Below, in pieces: positions 29,433 to 51,303 of a stretch of DNA of 64,000 nt (positions are counted from its first letter, which is position 1; the number at the start of each line of letters is the position of its first letter). Both the position numbers and the translations under genes were made by a program. The DNA is from Phycisphaeraceae bacterium (lineage in GTDB: Bacteria; Planctomycetota; Phycisphaerae; Phycisphaerales; Phycisphaeraceae): assembly GCA_963674705.1 (NCBI GenBank), contig OY771506.1:2560001-2624000 (forward strand), given 5' to 3'. The notes beneath the pieces are model-generated. The model ran no database searches. It was not told where the DNA came from and saw only the letters and a program-made list of their open reading frames with translations.

Positions 29433-29448
29433 AGCCGTGAGGTATCTG

Positions 29449-31106: not shown

Positions 31107-31990
31107 GTAACGCACCACACCTGCCAAGCATCACGATCATCACGCCAAGTTTCAATCAGGCAGCGTTCCTTGAACAGACGATCCAGAGCGTGCTCAGCCA
31201 GGGATACCCGGCTCTGCAGTACGGCATCATTGATGGTGGATCAACCGACGGCTCCATCGATATCATCGAACGCTACCGCAAGCAACTCGACTTTGCGGTG
31301 ATTGAAAAAGACAACGGCCAAACAGAAGCAATCAATAAGGGGCTAAAACAAGCCAAAGGCGAGATCGTTGGATGGCTATGCTCTGATGATACACTGCTGC
31401 CGGGCGCGCTGCAGACGGTTGGGACGCACTTCATGCATCAGCCTAAGGATGATTGGCTTGCCGGTGCATGCGCCATGATCGACATCGATGGTAAACAAGA
31501 GAGCGTCATCCGACCCGGCGGCGTGTTCACACTCGAAGGGATCCTCTTGCGCAGTGATGAACATCCATTTAACCTGCCTCAGCCCGGTGTGTTCTGGCGT
31601 CGAAGCCTGCATGACCAATTGGGACTTCTGGATGAGTCTCTGCATTACTGCATGGACTTCGAGTTCTGGCTGCGCCTGGTATCCGCCGGTTACCGCCCGA
31701 CATTGATCAACGATACCCTCGCCACCTACCGTCTGCATGATTCGAGTAAGAGCTGCGCCGCACCGATGGGCTTCATACGCGAACACATCGAGGTCGAAGG
31801 GGAATATGCCAAGTCGCTGCCGTTAATGCAGCGGATGCAGGTTGCCAGGCGCTTAGGTTACATGCATCGTGCGAGTGTTTTAAATGCGGCCGGCTGCAAC
31901 CCATGGAGCGAAGTCGCCCGACGGCCGTGGTGGCTCCTTTCGCAGCAGGTACGTGAAGCGCTACGCCACGGACCGCGTAAAGCGGCTTAG
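31103..31990 (+). CDS. Glycosyltransferase family 2 (WcaE-like)
   Basis: ITIITPSFNQ, DGGSTDGS, LCSDD, QPGVFWRR and MDFEFWLR motifs. Confidence 0.92.
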   Translation: MSNAPHLPSITIITPSFNQAAFLEQTIQSVLSQGYPALQYGIIDGGSTDGSIDIIERYRKQLDFAVIEKDNGQTEAINKGLKQAKGEIVGWLCSDDTLLPGALQTVGTHFMHQPKDDWLAGACAMIDIDGKQESVIRPGGVFTLEGILLRSDEHPFNLPQPGVFWRRSLHDQLGLLDESLHYCMDFEFWLRLVSAGYRPTLINDTLATYRLHDSSKSCAAPMGFIREHIEVEGEYAKSLPLMQRMQVARRLGYMHRASVLNAAGCNPWSEVARRPWWLLSQQVREALRHGPRKAA

Positions 31991-32135
31991 TCCATCGACT
32001 CGCCGTATTATCGGCCTCAGGATCATCTTGGCCGACTATTCGCCAACCCAAATCAGATACTGCCTGATTGAGGCGTTCAGCCTTCAATCGCTGTTGTTAT
32101 CAGTCGCCCTTGCGCCTGTTCGCTGTTGCATAGGG

Positions 32136-32189
32136 ATATGACGGTTGTAACGATTGTGCGGATTATGACGGTTATGACAATTGTGACAA
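32136..32189 (+). repeat. Six imperfect 9-bp tandem repeats (consensus TTRTRACRR)
   Basis: ATATGACGG TTGTAACGA TTGTGCGGA TTATGACGG TTATGACAA TTGTGACAA. Confidence 0.75.
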
Positions 32190-32206
32190 TTTTCTTGTCT
32201 GGGTAG

Positions 32207-32234
32207 TTAAGTCGCCCCCGCAGTATGACGATCC
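32207..32234 (+). promoter_or_regulatory. sigma28-like promoter 3: TAAG-N15-GACGATCC
   Basis: Same TTAAGTCG start and spacing as sites 1 and 2. Confidence 0.6.
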
Positions 32235-32266
32235 GGTGTGTAACGCATCAGTGTAAGGATGAGCCC

Positions 32267-33217
32267 ATGCTGCAGAACATCGCCAATAGCCTTCCTCGCA
32301 TCACCGTCATCACGCCCAGCCTTAACCAGGCTGAGTACCTTGAACGCACGATCTGCAGCGTGCTGGATCAAGGCTACGAGAACCTTGAATACATCGTCAT
32401 GGATGGCGGCTCATGCGACGGCAGCGTGGAGATCATCAAGCTGTACGAGGACGATCTTACCTACTGGCAGAGTGAGTCTGATTCCGGGCCGGCTCACGCG
32501 GTTAACCAGGCGCTGGACCGTGCGACGGGCGACATCATCGCGATCCTGAATGCTGATGATCTTTACCTGCCGGGCACACTTCACGAAGTTGCAGCACGAT
32601 TCCAGAAACAGGACGCTCCCGCTTGGATCATGGGACACTGTCTTCGCATCGGTGAGATGGATGAGCAACTCGGCCAGATCACAGCGGTGCAGCCGAAGAA
32701 TCTAGCAGGCTTCCTGATGGACGATGTCGGACACATTCCAATGGCGGCGTCGTTCTATCGTAAATCAATCTTTGAAGCCTACGGCCGATTCGATGCCGAT
32801 CTGCAGTTTGCCTGGGGCTATGAAATGAGCTGCCGTCTGATTGCTCAGGATCAGATGCCGGCACTTTTGCCGCAGATCGTTTCAGCTCATCGTGAGTATG
32901 CCTACAGCAAGATCGCTCAGAACACACTCAGTTGTGGTCCGGAATTCAGTGACGCAGCCGCACGTTATGCAGATCGTTTGCCGTTCGAGCGGCGTGCAGC
33001 GTTGTGGGAAGGCATCGAGCAGCGCAGGCAGATCTTCGAGCTTGCGAAGATCGAAGTTGCGTCCCATCCATCGCGTCGGCAGTTATGGAACCAGTTATTA
33101 CGCCGACCCTGGTGGCTGGCGAACGACCGGTACCGACAGACTTTACTTCGGGGCATCACGCATCCCGAGTGTCCGGCTCTTGATAAGAGCAGACAGCCTT
33201 TGCGAAAAGCGGCATAA
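32267..33217 (+). CDS. Glycosyltransferase family 2 (WcaE-like), paralog of 31103-31990
   Basis: ITVITPSLNQ, DGGSCDGS and LNADD motifs; RBS AAGGA before ATG 32267. Confidence 0.88.
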   Translation: MLQNIANSLPRITVITPSLNQAEYLERTICSVLDQGYENLEYIVMDGGSCDGSVEIIKLYEDDLTYWQSESDSGPAHAVNQALDRATGDIIAILNADDLYLPGTLHEVAARFQKQDAPAWIMGHCLRIGEMDEQLGQITAVQPKNLAGFLMDDVGHIPMAASFYRKSIFEAYGRFDADLQFAWGYEMSCRLIAQDQMPALLPQIVSAHREYAYSKIAQNTLSCGPEFSDAAARYADRLPFERRAALWEGIEQRRQIFELAKIEVASHPSRRQLWNQLLRRPWWLANDRYRQTLLRGITHPECPALDKSRQPLRKAA

Positions 33218-33251
33218 ACGGAGCAACAACAGACGTATGTTCCACTTGAAG

Positions 33252-33280
33252 AAGAGCCTCATGGAAGAGGCTCTTTTTAT
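33252..33280 (+). terminator. Rho-independent terminator ending the glycan locus
   Basis: AAGAGCCTC-ATGGAA-GAGGCTCTT followed by TTT. Confidence 0.8.
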
Positions 33281-33364
33281 TGCGCATTGTGCATAAGCTC
33301 GGTGGCTGTTATTCCTTCTGTTTCAGGACTGGCCAGCAGGCATTAATCGACCTATTGTATCGGC

Positions 33365-33952
33365 ATGAAAGCCAAGTTGACTCCCGTTGTCATCTTTGTC
33401 CTTATCGCGGTGATGGCCGTGCCGCTGTTCACGGGCCTGATTTCTTCCAGGAACATTGATCCGATTGAACTTGCCAGTCTGGACGTCGGCCCCGGTCGCG
33501 TGATACGGATCACTGTTGAGCAAAACTCTCAGCAGACGCTATCATTGCATTATTACGTTGAAGCTGATGGGCAAACTGTGATCGATCATGCTTTCTTCGG
33601 CACACTGCCGAGAACCGCTACGCCACCGTCCTTTGTGGTATATACCCCGGCCTCTGGAAGTGGGGGGATTGTCGGCATCGCGCAGGTAACGGTGCCTGAT
33701 CGCATCGTCATACTTCACGACTTTGATTCAGGCGAGAGTTATCCGTATCGCAATGCCACATACAAAGATACCGATCCGGATCATCTTTATCCTTACTACG
33801 AAGAGCAGGAATCGATCGAAGCCAGAGGCGAAACATTGTTTGTGCGTTTGCAGGAAGCACTGCCGGATACGGAGCTAGACCTGCTGCGTACTATGGGACT
33901 GCGGCCGCTTACATTGCCCGATGTCCAGCCAGAAGCCGAAGGTGCCGAGTAA
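33365..33952 (+). CDS. Hypothetical exported or membrane-anchored protein
   Basis: 195-aa ORF with an N-terminal hydrophobic segment; no recognised motif. Confidence 0.6.
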   Translation: MKAKLTPVVIFVLIAVMAVPLFTGLISSRNIDPIELASLDVGPGRVIRITVEQNSQQTLSLHYYVEADGQTVIDHAFFGTLPRTATPPSFVVYTPASGSGGIVGIAQVTVPDRIVILHDFDSGESYPYRNATYKDTDPDHLYPYYEEQESIEARGETLFVRLQEALPDTELDLLRTMGLRPLTLPDVQPEAEGAE

Positions 33953-33975
33953 ATCAAATGCTGTAAGGATCACAC

Positions 33976-35904
33976 TCAACTGATCCCACGCGCTTCCAGT
34001 TCACGCACTTCACGCGACCAGGCATCACGCTGTTCATCCGTAACATCGGGATCGGGCAACAGCGAGCGGCGTGTGCAATTTATCATCGCCTGAAGCGTCT
34101 GATACCGACGGGTCGAGGCAATATCCGGCGGGAGCTGGTCGTGTATCACCGCACTGATGTCATCGAAAGCCAACGGCTTTGATATGGACCGTGCTTTAAG
34201 GTTGGAACGCAGTGAGGCAAACGCCGCGGCTGAGTAACCTTGTGTCAGTTCATCGATGCGCTTGATCTGTCCATCGTTGAGTGTTTCTTTTAATACGCTT
34301 GATAGCACCCAACGGATAAACGCCGCTCGGTCTTCATCTTCAGGATCGAGCACGGGGATAATCAGGTCGCCGACACGCCCGGGGCGACGGATATCGGGGC
34401 TGAGAAGGTGGATGCGTGCGGTCATGAGAAGCCAGATGACGTGGCCGCGCAATGCCGGGTCGGACATCATTTGCTGCACTTTGCCTGTCAAGCGACGTTC
34501 GGTCGCGTGTGCATCCGGACCGACGCCACCGAATTGTGTGTCCGCTTCATCGACGAAGATGACGACCTTGTCGAGAGCCTGAAGCACCCGGCGGAGTTTC
34601 TCGAAGATGACATCGGTTTGCCCGAACCATTGGCTGCGGATGTTTTTCAGTTCGAGGACGGGCAGGTCAAGCGCGGCCGCAACCGCTTCAAAGATAAATG
34701 TCTTGCCGCCACCGATAGGACCAGCCACGGCAGCACCGGGCAAAGCGTCCGCCCCCGTCGATCGGAAGCGGGGCAGCAGTTCATCACGCACGAAGTTTTT
34801 CAGTTGAGTAAATCCGATCACATTATCCAGCGAGTGTTCCGGCTTCTTGAACGCAACGACATCTTCGCCAAGCTGCGTCTGGATGAACGATTCAACCTTG
34901 GCAATCACATCCTGCTGGCGCAACGGCCTGCCTGAATGAGCGGACGCGATCAGCATCTGACGCAACGCATGGATCGAAAGGCCTGCGGAGAATCGTGCAA
35001 GGTCATCGATCGATCCCCAGAGTTCGACCGAATGACCTGAACCGGTCGCGGCCTTGGGCTGGCGCATAAACCAGTCGATGTAATGCTTGCGGTTGTCATA
35101 ATCAGGTGCGCCGACATCGACGCTAAGAACGCTCGGTAGCTTTGATACACGCGGATGCACCAGGCCGACGGATTCACTCAGAAGCAACACGGTGTCGTCA
35201 CCGTTGGTAAAACCGGGATCGGAGAACCAGTCCTGCGCGATACCGATGCGGTGGCGGTCAGGCGAGCCGAGGTTCGCGATGTCGCCGTTGCCGGCAGGCA
35301 GTGCAAGGTCCGCCGCTTCGATCACGATCAACAGGTTGTCACGGATAAACGATTTACCTGATGCGTCTGTCGAACGCGAGCACAACGTCAACTGCCGAAG
35401 AAACTCAAGCGCGAAGGTAGGCCGACCTACGACCTCGCGCAGATTGCGATCGAAGTCCTGCTCCCAGTGTTGCCGTTCACTTGCGCGGTTTTTGTCGGTT
35501 AATGCCTGCAGCACAAGCGTGTCATGGTCAACGCCCGCCTTCCACGAGACCCAGCCCTGGCGCAGCATGTCCCAGCCTTTGTTCGCGCCCATCGTGCTCT
35601 GCAAACGGACCGGGCCGTTCTGTTCGTATACAAGAATCGTCAAGCCATCCATCCGGCAACGGTCGCAGATGTAATCGACCAACGGAACGTACGAGCCGGT
35701 GCTGTCGGCGGTGGGGCTGAAGAACAGGTCATGCACTTCGCCGGCAAGGATGATGCTACGCGATTGTCCAGCATTCACGATACCCGCGAGTTTATTGAAA
35801 AACCTCTTAGCGGAGACATTCGGATCAACCGCGTTAGTCGCTGGCCTGGGTTTCTCCGAACCTTCATCGGGGAGCATCGGCGAATCGTGTTTGGCTGTAC
35901 TCAT
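33976..35904 (-). CDS. Classic-clade AAA+ ATPase with a degenerate N-terminal AAA-like domain
   Basis: Walker A GPIGGGKT, pore loop SQWFGQT, Walker B VIFVDEAD, SRH DIRRPGR. Confidence 0.88.
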   Translation of the reverse strand: MSTAKHDSPMLPDEGSEKPRPATNAVDPNVSAKRFFNKLAGIVNAGQSRSIILAGEVHDLFFSPTADSTGSYVPLVDYICDRCRMDGLTILVYEQNGPVRLQSTMGANKGWDMLRQGWVSWKAGVDHDTLVLQALTDKNRASERQHWEQDFDRNLREVVGRPTFALEFLRQLTLCSRSTDASGKSFIRDNLLIVIEAADLALPAGNGDIANLGSPDRHRIGIAQDWFSDPGFTNGDDTVLLLSESVGLVHPRVSKLPSVLSVDVGAPDYDNRKHYIDWFMRQPKAATGSGHSVELWGSIDDLARFSAGLSIHALRQMLIASAHSGRPLRQQDVIAKVESFIQTQLGEDVVAFKKPEHSLDNVIGFTQLKNFVRDELLPRFRSTGADALPGAAVAGPIGGGKTFIFEAVAAALDLPVLELKNIRSQWFGQTDVIFEKLRRVLQALDKVVIFVDEADTQFGGVGPDAHATERRLTGKVQQMMSDPALRGHVIWLLMTARIHLLSPDIRRPGRVGDLIIPVLDPEDEDRAAFIRWVLSSVLKETLNDGQIKRIDELTQGYSAAAFASLRSNLKARSISKPLAFDDISAVIHDQLPPDIASTRRYQTLQAMINCTRRSLLPDPDVTDEQRDAWSREVRELEARGIS

Positions 35905-36839
35905 ACATTCACACTGCCCGCGGTTTGCCGGCGGGTCCAGAAGTCACGATGTGTTTCAGGATCAGGTGGATTCTCGGGTTCGAACACGATGTTGCGAATT
36001 TCATCACGCTGTGCGACAAACTGCTCAAATTCGCGCGGTGTGTTCGGCTCAAACGTGGGCGCTGCACGGTCGTACACAATCGTCGCTCCGGGGCAGCTAT
36101 CATGGCCCGCGCCTTGATAGTTCCAATACTGGCTTAAACCCAGCACACGGTCACAGATGTACAGCGCTTCGTTCAATTCATGTGTCACCAGCAGGATCGT
36201 ATGCGGCGGAGGCTTGCCTTCGATCTTCGCCCGTGTGTTTTCCTGGTATAGGGTCAGGACCATCCGCTGAAGGTCTTCGCGTGTGGCTTCGTCCAATGCG
36301 CCGAAAGGTTCATCCAATAGCAGAAGCTTCGGCCGCATTACCAATGCCTGTGCGATCGCGACACGCTGGCACATCCCGCCTGACATCTCCGCGGGGTACT
36401 TATCCATCGCATTACCAAGCCCGACTTTTACCAGCAGCTCTTCCGCTTGCCTGATGTGATCCTTCTTCATCATCCGCCACGTTCCCCACTTGAAAACGCG
36501 GAAGGGGATCGTCGTGTGGCGAAGCATCAGGCCGAAGGCGACGTTCTCACGGGCGGTCATGAATTCATACAACGAGTAGCGCTGGTAGACGATCCCGCGG
36601 TCAAAACCCGGGCTCGTTACGACCTTGCCGTCCATCAACACACTGCCGGCTTTCGGCGGGTGTGTTCCCAGGATTGCACGCAACAGAGTTGATTTACCGC
36701 AGCCCGACGGGCCCACGACCGCCACCATCTGACCCCGCTCGATGCTCAAGTTCAGATTGTGCAGCACACGGTTCGTCCCGAACCAATGGCTCAGGCCGTC
36801 CAGGCGGATCACGATGTCGCTGCCGTCGGGTGGATTCAT
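35901..36839 (-). CDS. ABC transporter ATP-binding protein (NitT/TauT family)
   Basis: GPSGCGKST, MSGGMCQRVAIA, LLDEPFGALD and VTH motifs. Confidence 0.93.
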   Translation of the reverse strand: MNPPDGSDIVIRLDGLSHWFGTNRVLHNLNLSIERGQMVAVVGPSGCGKSTLLRAILGTHPPKAGSVLMDGKVVTSPGFDRGIVYQRYSLYEFMTARENVAFGLMLRHTTIPFRVFKWGTWRMMKKDHIRQAEELLVKVGLGNAMDKYPAEMSGGMCQRVAIAQALVMRPKLLLLDEPFGALDEATREDLQRMVLTLYQENTRAKIEGKPPPHTILLVTHELNEALYICDRVLGLSQYWNYQGAGHDSCPGATIVYDRAAPTFEPNTPREFEQFVAQRDEIRNIVFEPENPPDPETHRDFWTRRQTAGSVNV

Positions 36840-36847
36840 TTAGCTTC

Positions 36848-37648
36848 TTACCGCCCAAACCAGGGGCACAGTTTTCGACGGGCCGTCAACAAGGCATAAT
36901 CGATCAGGAACCCGCTCGCGCCGAGCAGGCCCAGGTAAAAGTACACGATATTGAAGTTAACCTTTCGTCCTTCCAATCGCAGGCGATACCCGAAGCCCAC
37001 ATCTGCGACGACATACTCAGCTGCGATCAGGAACACCATCGCCGGGCCGATCTGCAATCGCACCGATTCGATCAACCTTGGTAATACCTGCTTGAAGACG
37101 ACATTCCAGATCTGTTCACCCTGCGAAGCGCCGAGCGTCGCCGCTTTATTAAGTAACTCCTCCGGCACATCCTTCTTCGCGGATTGATAGATCGCCTGAG
37201 CCAGCGTCGGTGTGACGCCGAAGACGATCATCGCGATGAAGAAACCCTGGTTGATCCCGACGAGTACGAAGAACACTGCAAGCATTGCGGTGGGGGGGAT
37301 CTTTGCTGCTATGGATAACGGCGTTTGCAGCACCGCTTCCACCGGCGCGTAACACCCCATCGCGATACCGAATACCAACGCCGCGCCGACCGCAATGAAC
37401 AACCCTTCAAATAGCCGGACATAAGTCGCAACACCATCCTCCCACAGGATGATCTCACCGCTACCGGGCTGCGGCGTCACTGACTTTTTGATCCCCTCGC
37501 CGATCTGGCTCCACGTGGGGATCGTGGTGTCGTTGGGGTTCTTATGGTGCTGCCTTACCGACAGCAACGTATAGATGCCGCACAATACCAGCACCGACAC
37601 GATCGCCAGTGTAATCCGCGTGCCGGGCTTGATCGGCCGACGGATCAT
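36848..37648 (-). CDS. ABC transporter permease (NitT/TauT family)
   Basis: Multiple TM segments, KIPPTA, EAA-like KAATLGAS, LIAAE and GFGYR motifs. Confidence 0.9.
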   Translation of the reverse strand: MIRRPIKPGTRITLAIVSVLVLCGIYTLLSVRQHHKNPNDTTIPTWSQIGEGIKKSVTPQPGSGEIILWEDGVATYVRLFEGLFIAVGAALVFGIAMGCYAPVEAVLQTPLSIAAKIPPTAMLAVFFVLVGINQGFFIAMIVFGVTPTLAQAIYQSAKKDVPEELLNKAATLGASQGEQIWNVVFKQVLPRLIESVRLQIGPAMVFLIAAEYVVADVGFGYRLRLEGRKVNFNIVYFYLGLLGASGFLIDYALLTARRKLCPWFGR

Positions 37649-38766
37649 TCGCCGGCTTCCATGACAGCATCGATATACTGGCTGGTGAAGGTCAGCGGCT
37701 CATCTTTACTACCGCCGTACGCGATCGCGGGTACTTTTTCGATGATCTTGTAGTCCTTGCAGAAGCCGGTGACCTTATCCATCGTTGTGTGAAGTTCCTG
37801 GCTGTCGAACAAAGCTTTAGCCTCGGCCGGCGTCTTGTAGAACTTGGTCTGCTCCACGACGACCTTCATCTTTTCGAGGCCCAGGCTGGAGAACTTCGAG
37901 CCCAGCGCGACGAGCGTCTCATCGCCGGTTTCCGGATCTGCCAGCATTTCGTTGAGTTGATAGAAGGTATCGATCACCGCTTCTGCGAAGCGATCACCAC
38001 CCGGCTTATCCAGTGAATCCTTGGCGGCGACGACCATGTCGATGATTTCACCGGGGATCTTCGTTGAATCGAAGAGCACTTTCGCGTCACTCCGCTGCTT
38101 AAGCGTTTCGAGCACGAACGGGTTCCAGACGACGATAGCGTCATAACCCGCCTGCTGCGTGATCATTGCCTGCGCAGCGGCGGCAGGGTCCATATTCGAG
38201 AAGATATAGTCGGCAGGATTCTCGCCCGCGATTTCAAGGTTGCGCACGAACGTGTACTGCGACACGCTGGCTTCCAGGCCGTAGGCTTTCTTGCCTTTCA
38301 GGTCCTGGATCGTGTCGATCCCCGTGACGATGCAGGCATCGGCGCCGAAGGATGTCGAGGTCGGCAGGATCGCAACCGCGGTTCGGCCCATGGATGGATT
38401 GAGGATGTCCATGTTCGTGATGCAGACCGCATCGACCGCGCCGTTGGCGTACATGTTGATGCACGTGTCGTAATCGGTTTCGTTCAGGACGATGTCGACG
38501 TTCCACTTCTTCTCGACCGGGCCGAGTTCACCTTCCTTGCCGTTGATCAGGCCCTTCATCTCTGCGACGCCGAAGACCGACCATGATGGATATTCGCTCC
38601 AGGCCAGGCTGAAGACCGGCGGAGCTTCATCACCCGCATTCGTTGTGCTGCCGGCTGAACTTTCCGATGGCGAAGATGAGTTGTCGCAACCGCTGGTTAA
38701 AGCAAATGCGCCGACCGTCAGAGCGGCCGCACAAGTTGTAAACAGTTTCGTGGTTCGTGAGTTCAT
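37645..38766 (-). CDS. ABC substrate-binding lipoprotein (NMT1/TauA-like)
   Basis: Lipobox LTSGC; WSEYPSW, TNMD, STSFGADA, WNPF and IPGEIID motifs. Confidence 0.85.
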   Translation of the reverse strand: MNSRTTKLFTTCAAALTVGAFALTSGCDNSSSPSESSAGSTTNAGDEAPPVFSLAWSEYPSWSVFGVAEMKGLINGKEGELGPVEKKWNVDIVLNETDYDTCINMYANGAVDAVCITNMDILNPSMGRTAVAILPTSTSFGADACIVTGIDTIQDLKGKKAYGLEASVSQYTFVRNLEIAGENPADYIFSNMDPAAAAQAMITQQAGYDAIVVWNPFVLETLKQRSDAKVLFDSTKIPGEIIDMVVAAKDSLDKPGGDRFAEAVIDTFYQLNEMLADPETGDETLVALGSKFSSLGLEKMKVVVEQTKFYKTPAEAKALFDSQELHTTMDKVTGFCKDYKIIEKVPAIAYGGSKDEPLTFTSQYIDAVMEAGE

Positions 38767-38822
38767 GGTATGGATTCCCGAAAAGTATTCTTTGGGTATT
38801 CAGTGCACGTCTAATTGGTGGC

Positions 38823-39665
38823 TCAGCCCTCGGGCAGTTTGGTTTCCGGCTTATCGATCATTTCGTTCGGCATCTCGGCCGATTCCTTGCTGTCGGTTTC
38901 ACCGGCCAGACCGATCAACTTGTTGAACTCGTCGGTCGCGACGTTGGTGCGGGCGTATTCGAGGAACTCGGCTTCCTGTTGCAACGTATCTGTGCCCGCC
39001 ATCTCGCGGGAGATCCTCGCTTCGGCCTTCTGTTGCTGACGTAAGTCACGCAGTTCCTGCAACTCCTGCGAGGTGCGGTCCTGGCTGATCCCGCTGATCA
39101 TGTCGGCGACCTCTTCCTCTTCTTTCGCGGTAATCATGTCCGCTACTGCTGAGGAGGATTCTTCCTTCAGCTTGTCCAGATCACGCAGCAGTTGCTGCAA
39201 CTGAACCTTATGCCCGCCGATCGTGTTGGTCAGTTCAGCGACATCGCTTTCCAGTTCGCTGATCCGGTCGCTCTTCTCCGCGATTGTGGAAGTAAAGTCA
39301 TTGAACGCGGTCATGCATTTGAGGTATTCCTCGTTCTGCTTGATCTGCTCAAGCGACATACCCTGACCCTTGAGCTGCTCGACGACCTTCCTGGCTTTCG
39401 CGGCCGCGCCTTCCTTGAGCTTCTCAAGATGCGATACCTCCTGGCTGAGCGATTTGACCTTGGCCGCCTTCTTCTCCTGCTGACCGATCATGCGGGAGAC
39501 CGCTTCCTTATATTGATGGATGCGGTCGCGCTTCTCGCGGATGATCCGGTCGTAGCTGGCCTGCACGACGTAAGGGTTCTTGCTCAGTTCCTGACGTGCG
39601 CGGTCGATCCGCCCGGTGACGAGGTAACCCAGGGCCCGAATGTATCTGCCGATGGCTCTAAACAC
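38823..39665 (-). CDS. PspA/IM30 (ESCRT-III superfamily)-like coiled-coil protein
   Basis: N-terminal amphipathic helix MFRAIGRYIRALGYLV, then the NP hinge (ELSKNPYVVQ) and a long heptad coiled coil, as in PspA; 280 aa. Confidence 0.65.
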   Translation of the reverse strand: MFRAIGRYIRALGYLVTGRIDRARQELSKNPYVVQASYDRIIREKRDRIHQYKEAVSRMIGQQEKKAAKVKSLSQEVSHLEKLKEGAAAKARKVVEQLKGQGMSLEQIKQNEEYLKCMTAFNDFTSTIAEKSDRISELESDVAELTNTIGGHKVQLQQLLRDLDKLKEESSSAVADMITAKEEEEVADMISGISQDRTSQELQELRDLRQQQKAEARISREMAGTDTLQQEAEFLEYARTNVATDEFNKLIGLAGETDSKESAEMPNEMIDKPETKLPEG

Positions 39666-39712
39666 GTTTACGCTCCTATCGGTGGGGGGCGGTCGTCCGC
39701 CCGGTGTTCTAG

Positions 39713-40459
39713 CTACTCGCTATCTCTGATGCTCGGATTCAGTTCCGTTTCCAGTTCGTTCATCCGCCGTTCAACGCGCCGTGCGACGTTGAGGTTTTCT
39801 TCCAGCTCTTGCCGCATGCTCGCCAGGTCCGCGCCGGGTGTGGTTGTATCCAGCCCCAGCGTGTGCAGGCCGTCGATTGTCTTGGCGATCTGCGTGATGC
39901 TCTTGTCTACCTCGACTAATACTTTCTCTCGCTTTTCCAACACCTCGCGTCTTGCCGCTTCTGTCAATACTTTTTGTGACGTCTCCCACAGCTTGTACGA
40001 ACCCTTAAGCGACTGATACGACGAATCCAACAACCTCTGTACTGTACCAGCGATCTCGACCGGTGGGGTGCGCGGCGTCTTGCTCGGGTCCATCAGGTCC
40101 CTGAACCGATCCGCCAACACCCGCAGCGTTTTCAGAGCCTGTCCCGTCCACGGGTCCTCGTCTTTCTCCAGCTGCGCCGCTAGTTCGTCCAGTTCACGTT
40201 CCTTTTGGGCAGCCATCTGTTCGTGTGCCCGAAGAAACACACGCTTGGCGATCTTGTCCCTGCTTATGATCCATCGTGTGACCAATGCTCCGGAGCCGGC
40301 CAGCAGGCTCATCACACCCGCGAAAGCAAGCAATTGTGTCGCTGCGCCTACCGCCCATGAAACCAGTAATAACGTCAAACCCAACGCGGCGGGCAACAGC
40401 ACAAACGGCGACATCGCCAGATCGAGCAAGACCTGTTTTCGGAAGCTCGATCCGTCCAT
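39713..40459 (-). CDS. Hypothetical membrane protein: two N-terminal TM helices plus a helical coiled-coil domain
   Basis: Hydrophobic hairpin at about aa 15-60; charged helical C-terminus; RBS GAGGAG. Confidence 0.75.
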   Translation of the reverse strand: MDGSSFRKQVLLDLAMSPFVLLPAALGLTLLLVSWAVGAATQLLAFAGVMSLLAGSGALVTRWIISRDKIAKRVFLRAHEQMAAQKERELDELAAQLEKDEDPWTGQALKTLRVLADRFRDLMDPSKTPRTPPVEIAGTVQRLLDSSYQSLKGSYKLWETSQKVLTEAARREVLEKREKVLVEVDKSITQIAKTIDGLHTLGLDTTTPGADLASMRQELEENLNVARRVERRMNELETELNPSIRDSE

Positions 40460-40472
40460 AACTCCTCAATGA

Positions 40473-42167
40473 TCAGTAGGGTGTTTGTCCAAGAATAAAA
40501 CGAACGGTCTGGGCTTCACCGCCCTCGGCCTCGGGCTCTGTCCCGATCGCACGCACACGCTCGACGGCGATGCCTTTCTCGATCAGGTACGCCGCTGCCG
40601 CCTCGGCCCGGCTCATCGCCAGCGCCCGGTTGGCTTCCGCATCCCCTTCGACCCGCGCCGATCCACGTATCGACACGTAGTAATGAGGCCAGGTATGCAG
40701 CGATTCGGCCAGCCGATCGAGCTCGAACTTGCTCTGCCGGGTCAGTATAGCGGTGCCCCGCGCGAACACAATCGGTCTGACACGCAGCGTGCCCACCGGA
40801 CGCAGCTGTTCCCATTGCTTGTCATTGAGCGCTTCAACCTTGAACGATCTCGCCTCGCCCGCATCCACATCACCGGGCTGGCGGACCAGCGACGGGTGGA
40901 AGTCGCTATCGCGCATCGTTTTCAGGATGCCGTCGTAGTACAACACGCTCGGATTACTCACCGAAGACGCCGAGTCGATCGCCCCCGTCTTCAGCAGCAC
41001 CGATGCAATGTTCCGGATCACTTCATCCAGGGGCTGAATCTCGCTGGCCTGTCCGCTAGACGTCAGACCCATATGTGCGTAGTTTTCCTGTGTGGTTTTC
41101 CACCACACCCCTTCGACCAGCTTATCAGCTTGTTTGGCGGTCAGCGGTTCACCGCTTTGTTTCGCGTCTTCCCGAACCGCTTGCGCCAATCCGCCACCAG
41201 CTCGACGCTGGTCATACAGCGTCCGCAGGTAGGTCTCGACGACCGCACGGACTGTGTCTTCATGCTCCAGTAAAAACTCACGGCTGACGACCAGCGTATC
41301 CACGATGTATCCGCGGAATCGAGAACTGTCGATCAGGATATGAGCGCCGTCTTTTTCCAGGGCTTTGCTGACGTAAGGCTCCCACAAGACATAGGCGGCC
41401 TTCTGTGATCGATCCGCCTTCTCAAAGCGTCGCAGCACATCGGCTGCGCCATCCGCCCGGACGAACGGATCGCTCGGTAGCTTGTCCAGTTGGAAACTCG
41501 CCATCACGACTTGCGCCAGTGTCGTGCTGGGCGATTCGGGGGTGGCGATGATCTTCGCGGTGGGGGAGTTCAGGGCATCGATATTCGGGACAGCTGATTC
41601 GTAGGCAACCATGGCATCCGCGCCGGTGGTTTCATCAATAATCATGACCGCGGTCACAGGCGCTTCACCCAGTTTAGCGGTCGCTTTTACAAGGCCGTCG
41701 AGTGTGAACACCGCCATCGGCGCTTCGCCGGTGCGCAGGGCTTTCATACGCTGGCTGTAGTCGGCCTGATCGTCTACTAAGTCAAGCTCGATGCCGCGCA
41801 GGGCGAGTTCTTCTTTAAATGCTTCGCTACGGAAAACCCAGTAGCCGGAAAAAGCGTCCAGCGATAAACGCAGCGTCAGTTTCTTGCCGCTATCGCTGAC
41901 CTTGACGCCGGTCAGACGCAGTTCCAGTTCCTGTGCCATCTGTCGGAGTGTCGCGGCGTCTGCGCCTTTGGGCGCTTCGTCGGGTGTGAGGCCGCGCTGC
42001 CGAGCCAGCTCGCATAGCTCTTCATAATCCTGCAATTGCTCTGCGACATCCTCACGCTCGTGCATCCAGGGCGAGACGATGAATTTATACGACACCGCCG
42101 CCAGCGCTACGATCACGATCCAGACGATCACAACTTTCAACAGACGCGCGGAGCCGCCACTACTCAT
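40473..42167 (-). CDS. Membrane-anchored substrate-binding protein fused to an OmpA-like C-terminal domain
   Basis: N-terminal TM; DAFSGY, DETTGADA, WEPY and IVD SBP motifs; IVFARGT...NRALAMSRAEAAAAYL..GI..ER OmpA-like domain. Confidence 0.82.
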   Translation of the reverse strand: MSSGGSARLLKVVIVWIVIVALAAVSYKFIVSPWMHEREDVAEQLQDYEELCELARQRGLTPDEAPKGADAATLRQMAQELELRLTGVKVSDSGKKLTLRLSLDAFSGYWVFRSEAFKEELALRGIELDLVDDQADYSQRMKALRTGEAPMAVFTLDGLVKATAKLGEAPVTAVMIIDETTGADAMVAYESAVPNIDALNSPTAKIIATPESPSTTLAQVVMASFQLDKLPSDPFVRADGAADVLRRFEKADRSQKAAYVLWEPYVSKALEKDGAHILIDSSRFRGYIVDTLVVSREFLLEHEDTVRAVVETYLRTLYDQRRAGGGLAQAVREDAKQSGEPLTAKQADKLVEGVWWKTTQENYAHMGLTSSGQASEIQPLDEVIRNIASVLLKTGAIDSASSVSNPSVLYYDGILKTMRDSDFHPSLVRQPGDVDAGEARSFKVEALNDKQWEQLRPVGTLRVRPIVFARGTAILTRQSKFELDRLAESLHTWPHYYVSIRGSARVEGDAEANRALAMSRAEAAAAYLIEKGIAVERVRAIGTEPEAEGGEAQTVRFILGQTPY

Positions 42168-43150
42168 GATGACGCTTTCCTCACAATGGCCACAAAGATT
42201 TTCAGTGCTACCATCAGCACAACCACCCAGATGATAATGGCAAAAAACCAACTACCTGCACTCGTGCCGCCACCGCTGCTGTGATTGGTGGTTGTGGTAT
42301 GTGTTGCGGCGGCATGGTTCGTATTGTGGGTGTTGGAAGTAGCCGTGGGATTCGTCCAGGCTTTTGAACTTTTGATCGGCTCATTGTTGCTCGTGGTCAA
42401 AGCAGTCAGCAGGCCTTCCGCCATGTTGTCGGGCAAGGCGGCGATCAATTCGAAGCTTTCGTCGTCTGTGGCCGTGTCGTCTACAGCCGATCCGATCTCC
42501 GCGACCGATTCCATGATGGCTTCACGCAACGCCTCGGCGTCATTAGCCCGACGGTAGTTGTGAACGCGGGTCGCCAGGGCATGATCGCCATCCATCGCGA
42601 CACCGATCACATCGATGACGATGCCGCGCGATAGCGCATCGGGCGTGAACTGCTGCACCTTACCCGAATCGCTTGCCTGGCCGTCCGTCACAATCAACAG
42701 GCGGTACGTACCGTAACCGTGCTGTTCGGTCCGTTTTTCCAAGAGCCGATCGGCGCCGATCCGGATGTATTCGCCTAACGGTGTTCCGCCATCGGGCCCA
42801 AGCCGCATCAGGTCTTTGGAAAACGTGCTTTTATCCAAAGGCCCAAGCGGGTAGACCCAGTCGCTTTTCTTGTTATTTCCGCTGAATACAAGCAAGCCGA
42901 CGTGCGTCTTCGGCTCGACCTGTTCCATGACATTCAATAACGCTTCCTTGGCAACTTCCATCTTACGTTTGTTGCTGCCGGGCATCATTTCCGCCATCGA
43001 GCCCGAGGCGTCCAGGATCACCACGATGTTGTCCACAGCATCTTCGTCAGGTGTATCCTGACCAATAGCTGCTGTGTTAAACAACATCACAACCACGCAG
43101 GTAAATATCGCCCACAATCGGTTGTTCTTTTTCAAGAGCGTGCTCATCAT
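42164..43150 (-). CDS. Exported von Willebrand factor A domain protein with C-terminal TM anchor
   Basis: Signal peptide; MIDAS DASGS, GGTP and VTDG; T/N/H-rich linker; C-terminal TM followed by RK. Confidence 0.88.
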   Translation of the reverse strand: MMSTLLKKNNRLWAIFTCVVVMLFNTAAIGQDTPDEDAVDNIVVILDASGSMAEMMPGSNKRKMEVAKEALLNVMEQVEPKTHVGLLVFSGNNKKSDWVYPLGPLDKSTFSKDLMRLGPDGGTPLGEYIRIGADRLLEKRTEQHGYGTYRLLIVTDGQASDSGKVQQFTPDALSRGIVIDVIGVAMDGDHALATRVHNYRRANDAEALREAIMESVAEIGSAVDDTATDDESFELIAALPDNMAEGLLTALTTSNNEPIKSSKAWTNPTATSNTHNTNHAAATHTTTTNHSSGGGTSAGSWFFAIIIWVVVLMVALKIFVAIVRKASS

Positions 43151-43180
43151 CCCGGATCCCTTCTTGTTGATGCACATCAA

Positions 43181-45007
43181 TTAGAAGTCGAAGTCACTCG
43201 GCCGAACCGCCTCGGCGGGCACCTTGATCAAGCGGAACTCGACTCGCATGTTCTGCTTGGCTTCGTTGAGATTCGTCGGCTTGGCGATCAACGGCTCGGA
43301 AACGCCCACACCCACCGGCTGGATCTGGCTGGCGTCCAGCGTCAGGCCCTGCGCCTTGGCGAAAGTCACGATCGCATCACGCACGGCTACCGCACGGGCC
43401 CGGGACAGGTTCAAAGCCGCCTGCATCGTTTCACGCGGATTATTCGAATCGCCATCGAATGCGCCGCTTTCAATCAGGTCGACAATCTTCTGGGTGTCCG
43501 TCAGATCGAGCGGGCGTTGATTGAAGTAATACTGCCAGTTCCCGCTTGAGCCGGACCGTTTGAGGATGCCTTTGCTAAGCCCCGCTTTCACCAGGTCAGA
43601 CAGTGTGCGCGTCGGATCGGAGTGGCCGCGGATCGCAATCACCGCGTTGCCGAACGTCGAGGCACTTTCCACCGCACGGCGGAACTCCGGCCCATAGACA
43701 TCCGCGCTGAACTCGTCCTGATTCGGCTCGAAGCTGATCGTAAACGCAACGATGACGTTCTCATCACCCTTGGCAAGATCGGGAAAATCTTCGACCGTCT
43801 CCGCCAGGATGCGGCCCTGTCCCGAACCGGTGACACGCTCAAGTCCGCCGAGTTTCGCGATCTTGTTGTAATCGAAGCTCGGTCCGAAGAAGCCCGCACG
43901 TTGCTTGGCATAACCCAGACTCACCGCCAGATCGAGTGCGGCACGCTGTTTGGCTTCGAAGCCCGACAGGTTGCCTTCATCTTCATAGAAAGAGATGTTA
44001 CCCGGCAGGCCGACAAACGTGCAGTCCAACAGCAGGCCGTGTGCATCGACTTCCAGCGTCGGCAGCACTTCTTCACCGAGGATCTGCTGTGCAAGTTTCA
44101 GCGTATCCATGTAGCCGTCTGCGCTGCCGGTTTCCTCGAACTTGTTACGCATCGCTACGAGCTGCTCGGCTCCTTTGAAGTAGCCGGCGACAAACTTCTC
44201 AACCAGCTCACGATTCGCATCGAAGTAATCTTTACGCACCGCATAGACATCCGCGATCGATCGACTCATCTGCGCGGTCGAGATCAGCACGTGTGCGCCT
44301 TTGATCGTGCCCTCCGCGCCGCTGCCGGTCTGTTCCAACCCACCGGTCAGGCCGATCATGTCCGGCGTGATCACGCAGCAGGCGTCGATCGACTTATCCT
44401 TACGCATCAACTCCGCCGGTCCGTTGGGTCCCGACAAATCGTCAACCCAGACAACTTCGATGTCGTCCCATGTCAATTGCGCAACACGCAACGCATCGTC
44501 CAGCATGCCAACGTGTGGCCCGCCCTGTTGCAGCGCGACCTTGGAACCTTTGAGTTGTTCGAGCCGTGTCAGGCCTTCACGTGACACGATGTGGTCACCC
44601 GCTGACCACGTCAGTTGCATAAAGACGACCGGCTTGGTCCGTGGATCGGAACCCAGCACTTCCGATGCCTGGCCGATCATGCGCAGCGTCCCCCGGAGGA
44701 ACGGCGTGTCACCTTGCCGGTATCGACGGACCTGCTCGATAAAGTCGTCGCCGTTGACCAGCTTGAGTTTCAGCCCGAGTTTGCCGTAGATGCTGTCGGA
44801 TGATGTGGTCACGCCGCCGTTGGCGTAGAACGTCGCCACGTCGCCGCCCCAGGTGATGAAAGGCACCTCGATGGTGTCGGTATTCTTGACCGAGCCCACC
44901 CGCACATCACCGACCAGATCGGAGAACGGCTGGGCGTTTGCCAGCGAACCGGTAATCAGGAATTGGACAGCGAGGCAGAGGACGACAAGCTGACGCACAA
45001 ATCGCAT
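43181..45007 (-). CDS. Exported substrate-binding protein fused to an OmpA-like domain
   Basis: Signal peptide MRFVRQLV...ANA; ITWGGD, TWSAGDHIV and IADV SBP motifs; RGHSD...LSRARA...NMRVEF OmpA motifs; RBS GGAAAGGA. Confidence 0.85.
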   Translation of the reverse strand: MRFVRQLVVLCLAVQFLITGSLANAQPFSDLVGDVRVGSVKNTDTIEVPFITWGGDVATFYANGGVTTSSDSIYGKLGLKLKLVNGDDFIEQVRRYRQGDTPFLRGTLRMIGQASEVLGSDPRTKPVVFMQLTWSAGDHIVSREGLTRLEQLKGSKVALQQGGPHVGMLDDALRVAQLTWDDIEVVWVDDLSGPNGPAELMRKDKSIDACCVITPDMIGLTGGLEQTGSGAEGTIKGAHVLISTAQMSRSIADVYAVRKDYFDANRELVEKFVAGYFKGAEQLVAMRNKFEETGSADGYMDTLKLAQQILGEEVLPTLEVDAHGLLLDCTFVGLPGNISFYEDEGNLSGFEAKQRAALDLAVSLGYAKQRAGFFGPSFDYNKIAKLGGLERVTGSGQGRILAETVEDFPDLAKGDENVIVAFTISFEPNQDEFSADVYGPEFRRAVESASTFGNAVIAIRGHSDPTRTLSDLVKAGLSKGILKRSGSSGNWQYYFNQRPLDLTDTQKIVDLIESGAFDGDSNNPRETMQAALNLSRARAVAVRDAIVTFAKAQGLTLDASQIQPVGVGVSEPLIAKPTNLNEAKQNMRVEFRLIKVPAEAVRPSDFDF

Positions 45008-45251
45008 CGGTGTTTCCTTTCCCGCCGGGCGTTGGAATCCCCTTGTAAGTCGATATGGGTCCCGACGATCGGGCATCATTGTATCGGAACTGGGCAAGCT
45101 TTGAGGCTGCTTTCGCATGTCTAGAACACGACGGCCCGGTTTTGTCAGGAATGAGACGTCGATGCTGTAGCATTTCACGGAAGTGGCGATGCGACATCCC
45201 AAAATTGGACCAAAGCAGATACATAACCCGGAAACGGTTCTGGAACTGAAA

Positions 45252-45323
45252 AGCGGGTGAAGGGGCTCGAACCCTCAACATTCAGCTTGGGAAGCTGACA
45301 CTCTACCATTGAGTTACACCCGC
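45252..45323 (-). tRNA. tRNA-Gly (anticodon CCC), CCA not encoded
   Basis: Reverse complement GCGGGTGTAACTCAATGGTAGAGTGTCAGCTTCCCAAGCTGAATGTTGAGGGTTCGAGCCCCTTCACCCGCT folds as a cloverleaf. Confidence 0.97.
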
Positions 45324-45337
45324 ATGGCAGGGATGTG

Positions 45338-45367
45338 ATTCTAGCACCTGTCATGGCGGGGACGCAA
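45338..45367 (-). promoter_or_regulatory. Probable sigma70 promoter of the tRNA (TTGCGT-N18-TAGAAT, extended -10)
   Basis: Motif lies 14 bp upstream of the tRNA 5' end. Confidence 0.55.
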
Positions 45368-45588
45368 GGCTTATGTGTGCGGGTTTAATTATCGGGGGAA
45401 CGTGCTTTTGCTGTCACTGCCACGAAATCAGGCAGATTCTCCCCAAGTTATGGATTTTTCTGCCCGCAAGTTCAGCAGTTACTTGTGCTCGATGATGTCG
45501 GTCAGGAAGCTGAGATATCCGCCACTGATGTGAGGCATCAGGCAGTAGTCACAAGATCCTGGCAACGAAATGGCCGGGGATGTCGGCC

Positions 45589-46026
45589 TTACACCCAAAC
45601 GCTTATAAACAGCGCATCCTCGGTCCGCTTGCCGACCAATTGCCCGATCGATTGACTGACGAACTTCACTTCATATTCCGGGTGGTTGTCCAGCCAGTTG
45701 TTGACCTGTTCATCCAGGTGTTCGATCGCGTCCAACCGCAGCTTCGCGACAAAAGTCTTGACGTGAATCGCGCCGGTATTGGTTACATTCGGCGTGCGTT
45801 TCCAATGTTCGACATGCGGCTTGCGCGTGTCGAAGGTGCGGATCTTGTTTGATCCAACGATGCTGGAAGACTCGGTCGGCACTTCGTCCAACTCGATCGG
45901 CTCCATGGCGTCGGCATCGTGGTCCGTCGTGTCGTTCTCTTCCGCTTCGTTGATATCGATCGGGATCGCGTTAGCCAGTAATTGTTCCTCGCTGACGTGT
46001 TCTTGAGAATGGGACTGGTCAGTCAT
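45589..46026 (-). CDS. Hypothetical protein (acidic N-terminus, compact C-terminal domain)
   Basis: RBS GGGAGG; 145-aa ORF with KTFVAKL..LDEQVNNWLDNHPEYEVKF. Confidence 0.75.
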   Translation of the reverse strand: MTDQSHSQEHVSEEQLLANAIPIDINEAEENDTTDHDADAMEPIELDEVPTESSSIVGSNKIRTFDTRKPHVEHWKRTPNVTNTGAIHVKTFVAKLRLDAIEHLDEQVNNWLDNHPEYEVKFVSQSIGQLVGKRTEDALFISVWV

Positions 46027-46154
46027 CGGAACCTCCCTTGAGTTGAATCTATCCGAAAAAGAGGTGCTCTATGGCGACTTGCACCTTTACTCTATCCCCA
46101 ACCAAGGCCGCCTACAAGCATTAATCGTGTTTCCAGACCGTTTTACAACAAAGA

Positions 46155-46538
46155 TCAAAAGACCACACGCCCGCGCCAGTTCATATCCGTCTTCTGCATC
46201 AATTCGGTCTGTCCATCAAAGCCCTGCATGTGCACATCCAGCAGCATCCGGCCATCGCGCCAGAGTCTGATTACCACACTACCTTGATCAACGCGTATCA
46301 CCGATCCACGATTTCCACTGATCGGCCCTTGATATGACAAATACGCACGCCGATGGGTTGGCAACTCCATCAGGTCGAATTTTTCAGCCCTCCGCCATGA
46401 CCTGCTTGGTAGTCCAACCCTCGCGGTCCACAGACCGCTAGCCGGATCACACACATAGCCCGGACTGCCGATCAGCCAGTCGTAATGGCTGCCGGAGCGT
46501 GTCGTGTGCATCAGCAGGGCGGTAGGGACGGTGAGCAT
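46155..46538 (-). CDS. Stand-alone LigD 3'-phosphoesterase-like domain protein
   Basis: H....SHYDW and HRRAYLSYQGPISGNRGSV...D.G resemble the LigD PE His/Asp/Tyr motifs. Confidence 0.6.
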   Translation of the reverse strand: MLTVPTALLMHTTRSGSHYDWLIGSPGYVCDPASGLWTARVGLPSRSWRRAEKFDLMELPTHRRAYLSYQGPISGNRGSVIRVDQGSVVIRLWRDGRMLLDVHMQGFDGQTELMQKTDMNWRGRVVF

Positions 46539-46705
46539 ATCCGTGGATCGTCCGGCAAGCAGGTCCTGCGGTCAATCTCAGGCCCGATAGCTCGCGTGGC
46601 TTGCCTAAAACGTGTAGAACGGCGATCTTATTCAGCATCTGCCGATACTATTAGTCATCGGCTGCTCGAAATACGCTACGAACCTTCCTCTAGAAGGGAT
46701 TATTC

Positions 46706-47413
46706 ATGACGATCAGGGAAAAGAAGACCATTCACGCCACACGCCTCACCGCGATTCTCAGCCTCTGCCTTGGGCTGCTGCTTATTACCGGCTGTCGCAC
46801 CGCCTTGGATATCCGCAATGAGGGCGTCGCCGCCCTGAATCGAGGCCAGAACGAGCTGGCTGTGCAGAAGTTCACCGAGGCTGTGGAACGTGATCCCAGT
46901 AGCGCCCGCAACCACTATCAGCTTGGTCGGGGTTATTTAGCCGTAAACGAGAACGTCAAGGCCCAGTATGAGCTGGAAAAAGCCCTCGCCTTACGCCCGA
47001 ATGAACCCGAGTTGACCCCCGACATCCTCGATAGCCTGGCAGAGGCCATTTATCGCCAGGATATGACCGCCAATCTCTACGCCTTCCTCGAAAAGCAGGT
47101 CAAGGACTTCGGCACCACCCGCGATTACCTGCGTCAGGGTAAGTATCTAGCCAAGGCAGGCGATCCGGACGCCGCACGCCTGGCCTTCCGTAAGGGGGCA
47201 TACTTCGCCGCCCCGAACGACCCCGAGCCCTACATCGCCATCGCTGACTTCTACACCGCCATAGGAGACCAGCCCGAGGCCGTTACCGCCCTGCGATACG
47301 CCAACTACGTCGATCCCGGCAACCGGGATGTCGCCGAGCGACTGCGCCAATTCGGCATCGTCCCCGGCCCCACGGTGACCGAGGCCCCGCCGAAGCCGGA
47401 CCTGCTGAAGTAG
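46706..47413 (+). CDS. TPR-repeat lipoprotein
   Basis: Lipobox LITGC; TPR-like helices (A...F..A...DP, LG..Y). Confidence 0.8.
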   Translation: MTIREKKTIHATRLTAILSLCLGLLLITGCRTALDIRNEGVAALNRGQNELAVQKFTEAVERDPSSARNHYQLGRGYLAVNENVKAQYELEKALALRPNEPELTPDILDSLAEAIYRQDMTANLYAFLEKQVKDFGTTRDYLRQGKYLAKAGDPDAARLAFRKGAYFAAPNDPEPYIAIADFYTAIGDQPEAVTALRYANYVDPGNRDVAERLRQFGIVPGPTVTEAPPKPDLLK

Positions 47414-49647: not shown

Positions 49648-49693
49648 AGACACAAAGCAGTTAGCCATCAGCCCTTAGCTAATGGCTTCTGTC

Positions 49694-49721
49694 TACACCC
49701 TACACCCTAAACCCTACACCC
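49694..49721 (+). repeat. Heptamer tandem repeat (TACACCC)x4, one variant unit
   Basis: TACACCC TACACCC TAAACCC TACACCC directly before the trkH start. Confidence 0.85.
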
Positions 49722-49727
49722 TGCCCC

Positions 49728-51269: not shown

Positions 51270-51303
51270 TTACGAACGAATCATAAAGTCTTAGCTTAAA
51301 TAT

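Follow-up and report, generated by a model that had tools for sequence, protein, structure and literature searches.

The minus strand of a 64,000-nt stretch of a Phycisphaeraceae bacterium genome (contig OY771506.1; hereafter the window, whose positions serve as coordinates throughout) carries nine open reading frames (ORFs) that run from 45007 down to 33976 and are numbered here g1 to g9 in transcription order. They encode two fusions of a solute-binding protein (SBP) to an OmpA-like domain (g1 and g3), a membrane-anchored von Willebrand factor A (vWA) protein (g2), a protein with two transmembrane (TM) segments (g4), a divergent PspA (g5, hereafter PspA'), the binding protein, permease and ATPase of an ATP-binding cassette (ABC) importer (g6 to g8) and a tandem AAA ATPase (g9). 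The gaps from g1 to g9 measure 30, -4, 13, 47, 56, -4, 8 and -4 nt, and the tightly packed gene order of the first-pass annotation, with all of its ORFs and domain calls, holds. So does its statement that this is not the canonical Psp system: Pfam and NCBIfam scans of 14 proteins, those of the operon and its neighbours, gave no match to PspB, PspC or PspF. Comparison of related loci reveals that PspA' and g9 are the core of the operon, occurring together in every bacterial genome checked, and that the transport part is probably accessory.

The protein encoded by g5 (38823..39665) is, by profile comparison, a divergent member of the ESCRT-III-like PspA/Vipp1 family. Profile-profile alignment (hhalign) of 92 g5-family sequences with 14 canonical PspA sequences gave 96.7% (E 4e-10), with 188 columns in register, as compared to 0.05-1.7% for four coiled-coil control pairs set against either side (flotillin, DUF3686, g4). 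An AlphaFold2 (AF2) model has short N-terminal helices, a long hairpin (H31-100/H112-240) at high predicted local distance difference test (pLDDT) scores and a disordered tail, and the top row of a Foldseek search with g5 is Vipp1 (6zvr, E 3.7e-3). In the cluster atlas, g5 falls with clusters that carry the name PspA/IM30, and a cluster bearing PF04012 scores 0.92, a weak indication since its recognition value lies below threshold. Together, these data uphold the initial assignment of g5 as PspA/ESCRT-III-like. The membrane-binding helix 0 of PspA is amphipathic (PMC7619361), and residues 1-18 of g5 have a hydrophobic moment of 0.65, rank 1 of 263 windows, with a charge of +3 (mean moment 0.54 in 94 homologs). 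As compared to canonical PspA, the family has an insert of ~30 residues at the hairpin tip, in which G102, Y114 and C117 are invariant.

This relationship emerged from profile-profile comparison only. A plain hidden Markov model of g5 stayed near noise against canonical PspA loci (best E 1.2e-3), and the g5 profile found no PspA among the sequences of solved structures, its best match being prefoldin (E 0.03). PF04012, the Pfam PspA model, has no match in g5 at the gathering score and 0 matches in the genome that carries it, and weak matches in 9/111 g5 homologs (best E 3.8e-4).

The last gene, g9 (33976..35904), encodes an ATPase with two AAA domains whose closest solved structures are VAT, p97 and Cdc48 (E 4e-26). 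The N-terminal half aligns to the protein's own C-terminal half (85.7%, E 5.5e-6) but is degenerate, without the Walker A lysine; the C-terminal AAA domain retains Walker A and B residues (K401, D452 and E453 in 63/63 sequences), arginine fingers (R507 and R510 in 60/63) and an aromatic pore loop. Pfam finds no MIT domain in g9, and the score against the CdvC family is 40 bits (cut-off 650). Given the tandem arrangement, the lack of an MIT match and the proximity to VAT and Cdc48, its sequence marks g9 as a Cdc48/VAT-like tandem AAA of the classic clade with a dead first domain, not as a Vps4. The earlier proposal of a classic-clade AAA tied to g5 therefore stands in that part and fails as regards membership of the Vps4 family; the likeness to Vps4 is one of analogy, in that g9 could work in a similar way.

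Quantification of co-occurrence revealed a strict pairing. Among 201 Planctomycetota genomes, g5 relatives are present in 10 (that of the window included), and an AAA matching at E 1e-90 or better is present in exactly those 10, with 25 further genomes holding a distant sister AAA only. The pairing persists where the two genes are apart: in 17 other bacterial genomes with no AAA gene beside g5, each with at least 6 kb of sequence downstream of g5, a g9-type AAA lies elsewhere in the genome in 17/17 cases (full-length in 12, partial in 1, divided over two frames in 3 and interrupted by stops in 1). Hosts of g5 loci are mostly Planctomycetota, and also include Bdellovibrionales, Verrucomicrobiota, Hydrogenedentota, Nitrospiraceae and Thermoanaerobaculia records. 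A special role in elaborate planctomycete membranes, which had been suggested at first, does not fit presence in so few planctomycete genomes together with occurrence in other phyla and in phages.

PspA' also has a distinctive C-terminus. The motif [LIV]P[EDQ] terminates 86/91 complete g5-family copies, after a variable linker of 15-27 residues, and across all 3582 long frames, the g5-family copies included, it is C-terminal in 91. The five exceptions are a second g5 in the genome of the window, locus L076, two near-identical viral copies and a 595-kb phage record; in this last, neither an AAA match nor any remnant of the tail motif is present. In a sister family read by eye, PspA ends near K-x-[LIM]-G in 4 genomes, all of which have a sister AAA, and 7 genomes with only a tail-less PspA have no AAA match (by eye as well, and small numbers). 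A conserved motif on a disordered tail that tracks an AAA with a pore loop may be a substrate tag.

Strict co-occurrence would be equally expected if PspA' regulated g9 and was not its substrate, the hairpin (perhaps through its insert) binding and inhibiting g9 until envelope stress draws PspA' to the membrane and so frees the enzyme to remodel other targets. Such an arrangement has a precedent in PspA-PspF, a known interaction of PspA with an AAA+ protein (PMC7619361), and it would give the invariant residues of the insert a place. Yet g9 belongs to the classic clade, has an aromatic pore loop and matches no DNA-binding domain; no third gene besides PspA' and the AAA is constant across all architectures, as a target might be; and the conserved tail would be left unexplained. 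We consider regulation of this kind unlikely.

To define the wider context, we compared 84 g5 loci from other genomes, obtained in two scans (the second contributing the best 80 of 111), and the paralog locus of the same genome, 85 in total, 49 of which have flanks long enough to contain the whole operon. All nine genes are present in 12/49 full-length bacterial loci, one of the 12 being that of a Phycisphaeraceae genome with 97-99% identity. The others contain g1-g8 (3 loci), other partial sets (4), g5 and g9 only (17), g4, g5 and g9 (4), g4 and g5 (4) or g5 alone (5). Where all nine genes occur they are collinear in 13/13 loci (12 bacterial, 1 viral), some with insertions, which confirms the neighbourhood as conserved. 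The set does not form an obligate unit, as had been envisaged, since PspA' and the AAA occur without importer or receptors in 21/49 full-length loci.

That fraction is what one would expect of two independent modules under a shared promoter, one for the uptake of a guanidine-like nitrogen source, surface binding proteins included, and one, PspA'/AAA, for membrane protection, with no mechanistic coupling. Orthologs of g1 likewise occur in 6 of the 10 PspA' genomes among the 201 Planctomycetota and in 2 genomes (G079, G111) in which no g5 was detected; the g6 pocket described below resembles that of SBPs linked to guanidine riboswitches; and at one viral locus, genes of carbamoyltransferase and amidinotransferase type adjoin g4-g6. 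This separation is at odds with the position of PspA' amid the transport genes in every one of the all-nine loci, with the sister family, which again links PspA, SBP-OmpA, ABC and AAA genes in a different order, and with phages, which retain the interleaved set. On balance, we regard mechanistic independence as improbable. A further locus, L140 (8599-19549), has transport genes, g1-g3 and a distant g4 in another order, with an SBP nearer TIGR03427 (286 bits); its genome yielded no PspA' at E 1e-10.

Two other architectures recur. In 18 loci the order is YqiJ, flotillin, DUF3686 ATPase and g5, with or without g9, and in 4 loci it is g4, SBP/vWA, SBP, g5 and g9. The latter loci (L009, L013, L055, L057) contain g4, then an SBP-vWA fusion, a second SBP of another class, PspA' and the AAA, so that the pairing of SBP and vWA recurs with unrelated binding proteins. 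The second g5 of the genome of the window (53% identical) sits in a flotillin-type locus with no AAA beside it (L018 1776-11181; G000:C1 about 4619800-4629200), preceded by YqiJ-like and flotillin-like genes and by one for a DUF3686 ATPase of 1861 aa. With a single g9-type AAA in this genome, g5 and its LRE-tailed paralog would have to share it. In a quick tree the flotillin type groups as a single clade (support 100) within the transporter-type rows, a placement that suggests from sequence that the transporter context is the older; the tree, a quick version, has long branches and hence a weak root. The transport part is accessory: flotillin or SBP-vWA genes can take its place, and it is probably the ancestral context.

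Beside PspA' lies g4 (39713..40459), which encodes a two-TM protein (segments at residues 19 and 43, a basic stretch after the second) with a compact cytoplasmic helical bundle (AF2, pLDDT 86.9); it is a candidate membrane recruiter of PspA'. It belongs to a large, unnamed family of 1061 clusters at 50% identity, and its nearest Pfam-bearing atlas cluster is Rv2743c (0.88; 186 shared features), a family found on 12% of the members. The matches listed for g4, its 44-row alignment and 60 further homologs include no Rv2743c (PF25587). Fold searches with g4 returned nothing specific, the Snf7 core (rank 48, Z 8.0, 75 residues) standing among generic bundles. Treating g4 as a second ESCRT-III subunit found no support in profile tests, where hhalign gave 1.2% against PspA and 1.7% against the TM protein of the sister operon (5-row profile).

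The remaining genes concern ligands and the envelope. For g1, g2 and g3 the longest ORFs overshoot, and the best-supported starts are ATG codons at 45007, 43150 and 42167, each behind a purine-rich stretch. The g1 product (43181..45007; 608 aa) has a signal peptide and an SBP of the NMT1/SsuA class (Pfam NMT1 E 4.5e-4) fused to a C-terminal OmpA-like domain with a weak Pfam match (E 0.014). The peptidoglycan-binding motif of OmpA-like domains is a conserved Asp and Arg pair. In g1 this pair is D529 and R603 (ORF numbering), present in 20/20 sequences, and the motifs RGHxD, NLSxxRA and RVEF are kept in 19-20 of 20. The g3 product (40473..42167) has an N-terminal membrane anchor, a helical linker, an SBP and a degenerate OmpA-like domain (Pfam OmpA E 4.5e-11; TIGR03427 E 4e-9), in which Arg548 is present in 28/28 and the Asp position is Arg in 18/28, then Ser, Thr or Ala. 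Both OmpA domains had initially been taken as wall tethers; for lack of the conserved Asp in g3, only g1 is well supported as a wall-tethered receptor.

The importer is of the NitT/TauT class according to Pfam and NCBIfam, with a permease encoded by g7 (36848..37648; BPD_transp_1 E 8e-11; TauC E 4e-20, below cut-off) and an ATPase encoded by g8 (35901..36839; ABC_tran E 8.6e-33; ntrCD E 1e-52, below cut-off). Its binding protein, g6 (37645..38766), is a lipoprotein, with a lipobox-like LTSGC sequence, and a relative of TIGR03427 below the family cut-off (162 bits against 334). Alignment of g6 with nine stand-alone SBPs revealed an aromatic/aspartate pocket of Y59, W62, D143, W214 and D243, kept in 31-32/32 members. 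The same pattern is present in g3 (28/28), which aligns to g6 at 97.9% probability; g1 aligns poorly (49%) and its pocket differs. The docked pocket of the guanidine-binding protein GimA consists of W59, W62, D135, F205 and D233 in the accessible text of its report (PMC12704784), and guanidine-II riboswitch matches occur at 3/7 scanned stand-alone TIGR03427-like ABC importer loci (L143, L147, L149; Planctomycetota). These data make a cationic, guanidinium-like ligand of g6 and g3 plausible, the GimA residues being mapped by spacing only. The operon shares with GimABC a NitT/TauT-class importer and the order aromatic-aromatic-Asp-aromatic-Asp in the pocket; unlike GimABC, it has g6 at half the family cut-off and neither a riboswitch nor a guanidine catabolism gene.

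The vWA protein g2 (42164..43150; Pfam VWA E 4.9e-13) has an intact metal ion-dependent adhesion site (MIDAS; DxSxS in 27/28, T133 and D166 in 28/28) and two hydrophobic segments, an N-terminal signal and a C-terminal membrane anchor, which place the domain outside the cytoplasm by prediction, facing the periplasm. Pairs of AAA+ and vWA proteins are a known chaperone theme, and vWA domains recur in two of the architectures, so g9 might be conceived as a chaperone that helps to assemble the vWA protein or the transporter, in the style of MoxR-vWA pairs, with PspA' incidental. Against this, g2 and g9 would be on opposite sides of the membrane, no membrane or signal segment being predicted in g9, and g9 is Cdc48-like and tracks PspA', not the vWA protein or the transporter. 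We consider a chaperone of this kind very unlikely.

Large phages carry the cluster as well, and these phages fall in two tree groups. The 595-kb phage record (L093, LR756511.1; 15072-23634) has g1-g8 without the AAA among phage-type genes. A viral scan with the AAA alignment found 7 IMG/VR loci and one with the g5 alignment none, which indicates that pattern scans miss divergent members; within the sequence available, five of the 7 have seven to nine operon genes, one has g4-g6 and g9, and one has g9 only. Their flanks include gp32-like genes at two loci and helicase and polynucleotide-kinase genes at four. CinA-like and polynucleotide kinase genes repeatedly stand between g8 (or g6) and g9 in viral loci L087-L092, and upstream of g4 in L087 lie genes of the carbamoyltransferase and amidinotransferase types. 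Two patterns run on genome contigs did not recover the divergent viral PspA' clade, which is no proof of absence.

Presence in phages of two tree groups raises the question of whether the cluster acts in conflict between phage and host, either as defence or as a phage tool for taking over the host membrane. ABC systems beside 15/189 pspA genes of huge phages are reported in the available text of a 2026 preprint (10.64898/2026.10.24.761521), which points the same way. In the bacterium, however, the operon lies between glycosyltransferase and K+-uptake genes (as read from sequence) with the average GC of its genome (57.5% versus 56.6%), and PADLOC, by which we considered a defence system, returned generic ATPase and coiled-coil matches only. 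A role in phage-host conflict is thus highly improbable.

A convergent gene ends at 33952, beyond g9, and glycosyltransferase-like and methyltransferase-like ORFs, several with similar R-[KR]-A-A tails as read from their sequences, occupy 27619-33217 (+). On the other side, 48304-52845 (+) holds what we take from sequence appearance to be a TrkA-like gene and, after it, a tandem pair of similar TrkH-like membrane genes of 513 aa each. A tRNA-Gly(CCC) gene (45252-45323, minus strand) precedes g1 by 245 nt on the same strand and was the only match in an Rfam scan of 33000-47000; a promoter shared with g1 is possible, with a sigma-70-like site at 45417-45388. The tRNA was not seen beside related loci, nor in the stretch of the near-identical locus (L001). 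A recent horizontal insertion at the tRNA was considered and rejected, the GC content being ordinary and a tRNA lying within the stretch at 1/22 related loci.

Related neighbourhoods of PspA, AAA and ABC genes were suspected to be in print already, and they are. Ravi et al. (2024; PMC11237479), in the text accessible to us, describe operons of PspA, a protein with an inactive and an active AAA domain, a TM-'Snf7' protein, ABC ATPase, permease and PBPB-OmpA, and propose from in silico analysis an ATP-dependent membrane remodelling linked to solute transport. Their example (OGG56892.1) and the operon described here share PspA, the inactive-AAA + AAA protein, a membrane-anchored helical protein, ABC ATPase, permease and SBP-OmpA; the example differs in that it has a single SBP-OmpA, lacks a vWA protein and a free SBP, and places the TM protein directly ahead of the AAA. 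The accessible main text and supplement of that paper contain 0 mentions of vWA. As compared to their "Snf7" TM protein, g4 has the TM and helical build, with no profile alignment to PspA or to the TM protein of the sister operon. The gene order of OGG56892.1 matches a sister operon (L153, rearranged in L139, L145 and L152) rather than this one, from which, on order alone, we infer its family; the sister operon has a canonical-like PspA, one SBP-OmpA, permease, ABC, a different TM protein and a distant tandem AAA (about 150-220 bits). The YqiJ-flotillin-DUF3686 ATPase operons with PspA, also covered in the available text of Ravi et al. (2024), correspond to our 18 flotillin-type loci, which have the same PspA' family and no transporter; a tandem AAA of its own usually accompanies PspA' there in addition.

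Likenesses to other systems are partial. In common with ESCRT-III/Vps4 and archaeal CdvB/CdvC, the operon has a candidate ESCRT-III-fold polymer with a disordered, motif-bearing tail and an adjacent classic-clade AAA with an aromatic pore loop; unlike them, the AAA is tandem, nearer VAT/Cdc48 and without an MIT match, the tail is LPE-type, there is no ESCRT-II gene and the system is known from genes alone. The mycobacterial ClgR-PspA-PspM system (Rv2744c/Rv2743c) also has, next to PspA, a membrane protein whose cytoplasmic part is helical, and Rv2743c is reported to form a complex with PspA (PMC7619361); here ClgR, PspN and a Pfam Rv2743c match are lacking and an AAA and a transporter are added. 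A TelA/XpaC-type system, also considered, gave neither a Pfam match nor a paper. We found no bench study of such a PspA/AAA operon in the openly accessible literature, subscription papers lying outside the search. The outline is already published from genome comparison; the strict pairing and the tail make the proposed recycling directly testable with two proteins.

How might these parts work together? PspA' would likely coat the inner membrane via its amphipathic first helix, and g9 would likely grip the conserved C-terminal tail, pull subunits off and recycle the polymer, which g4 might anchor or nucleate. At the envelope, the importer (g6-g8) and the anchored g1 and g3 would deal with a small cationic solute resembling guanidinium; g1 would be held at the wall, and g2, the vWA protein, would be a metal-dependent partner. 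The best explanation of the whole is therefore a recycling core of PspA' and a Cdc48-like AAA with an accessory transport module, and we put its chances at about even. Homology, motifs, co-occurrence and tail conservation were observed; the parts given to g4 and the transport genes are deduced. The first-pass annotation was broadly right about the PspA/ATPase core and overstated the case for an obligate nine-part, trans-envelope machine with a planctomycete-specific role.

Several observations weigh against a recycling core with a guanidinium-related module. Co-occurrence among kin and linkage within an operon are not independent events. The paralog in the same genome ends in LRE and two viral copies end in LHE, and L076 has an adjacent AAA and yet lacks the tail. 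Fold searches fail to tell PspA and other long hairpins apart, the best Foldseek E value being the one given above, and in a wide search VIA PspA stands at rank 8 (Z 11.7) with SMC, p85 and other coiled coils in a tie; because unrelated coiled coils score as well as PspA, the fold test of g5 is not decisive alone. PspA itself is reported to hydrolyse ATP in the accessible part of a review (PMC7619361), so that a recycling ATPase may be unneeded. As for the ligand, an Asp invariant in stand-alone SBPs is Ser in g6, and no riboswitch (Rfam, 33000-47000) or catabolic gene in the operon (Pfam/NCBIfam) marks it.

A bolder reading is that bacteria evolved an equivalent of Vps4, a Cdc48-like tandem AAA that would read a family-specific PspA tail (of LPE type in this family, K-x-[LIM]-G in its sister) and recycle the polymer; that a trans-envelope complex with wall- and membrane-anchored receptors for guanidinium-like cations would direct the polymer; and that large phages captured the machine at least twice. 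Taken jointly, these propositions are tentative and rather doubtful. A 2025 review states, in its accessible part, that a Vps4-like ATPase for ESCRT-III dynamics appears absent in bacteria (PMC7619361), and the available text of Makarova et al. (PMC10936438) restricts systems of Vps4 and ESCRT-III to archaea and eukaryotes. The pair of PspA' and g9 offers a direct, two-protein test of the review's statement. The g5 family is missed by the Pfam PspA model, and surveys of PspA that use this model would accordingly undercount it in bacteria and phages. If the proposed recycling is true, ATP-driven recycling of ESCRT-III polymers would have arisen independently in bacteria, from a Cdc48-like enzyme.

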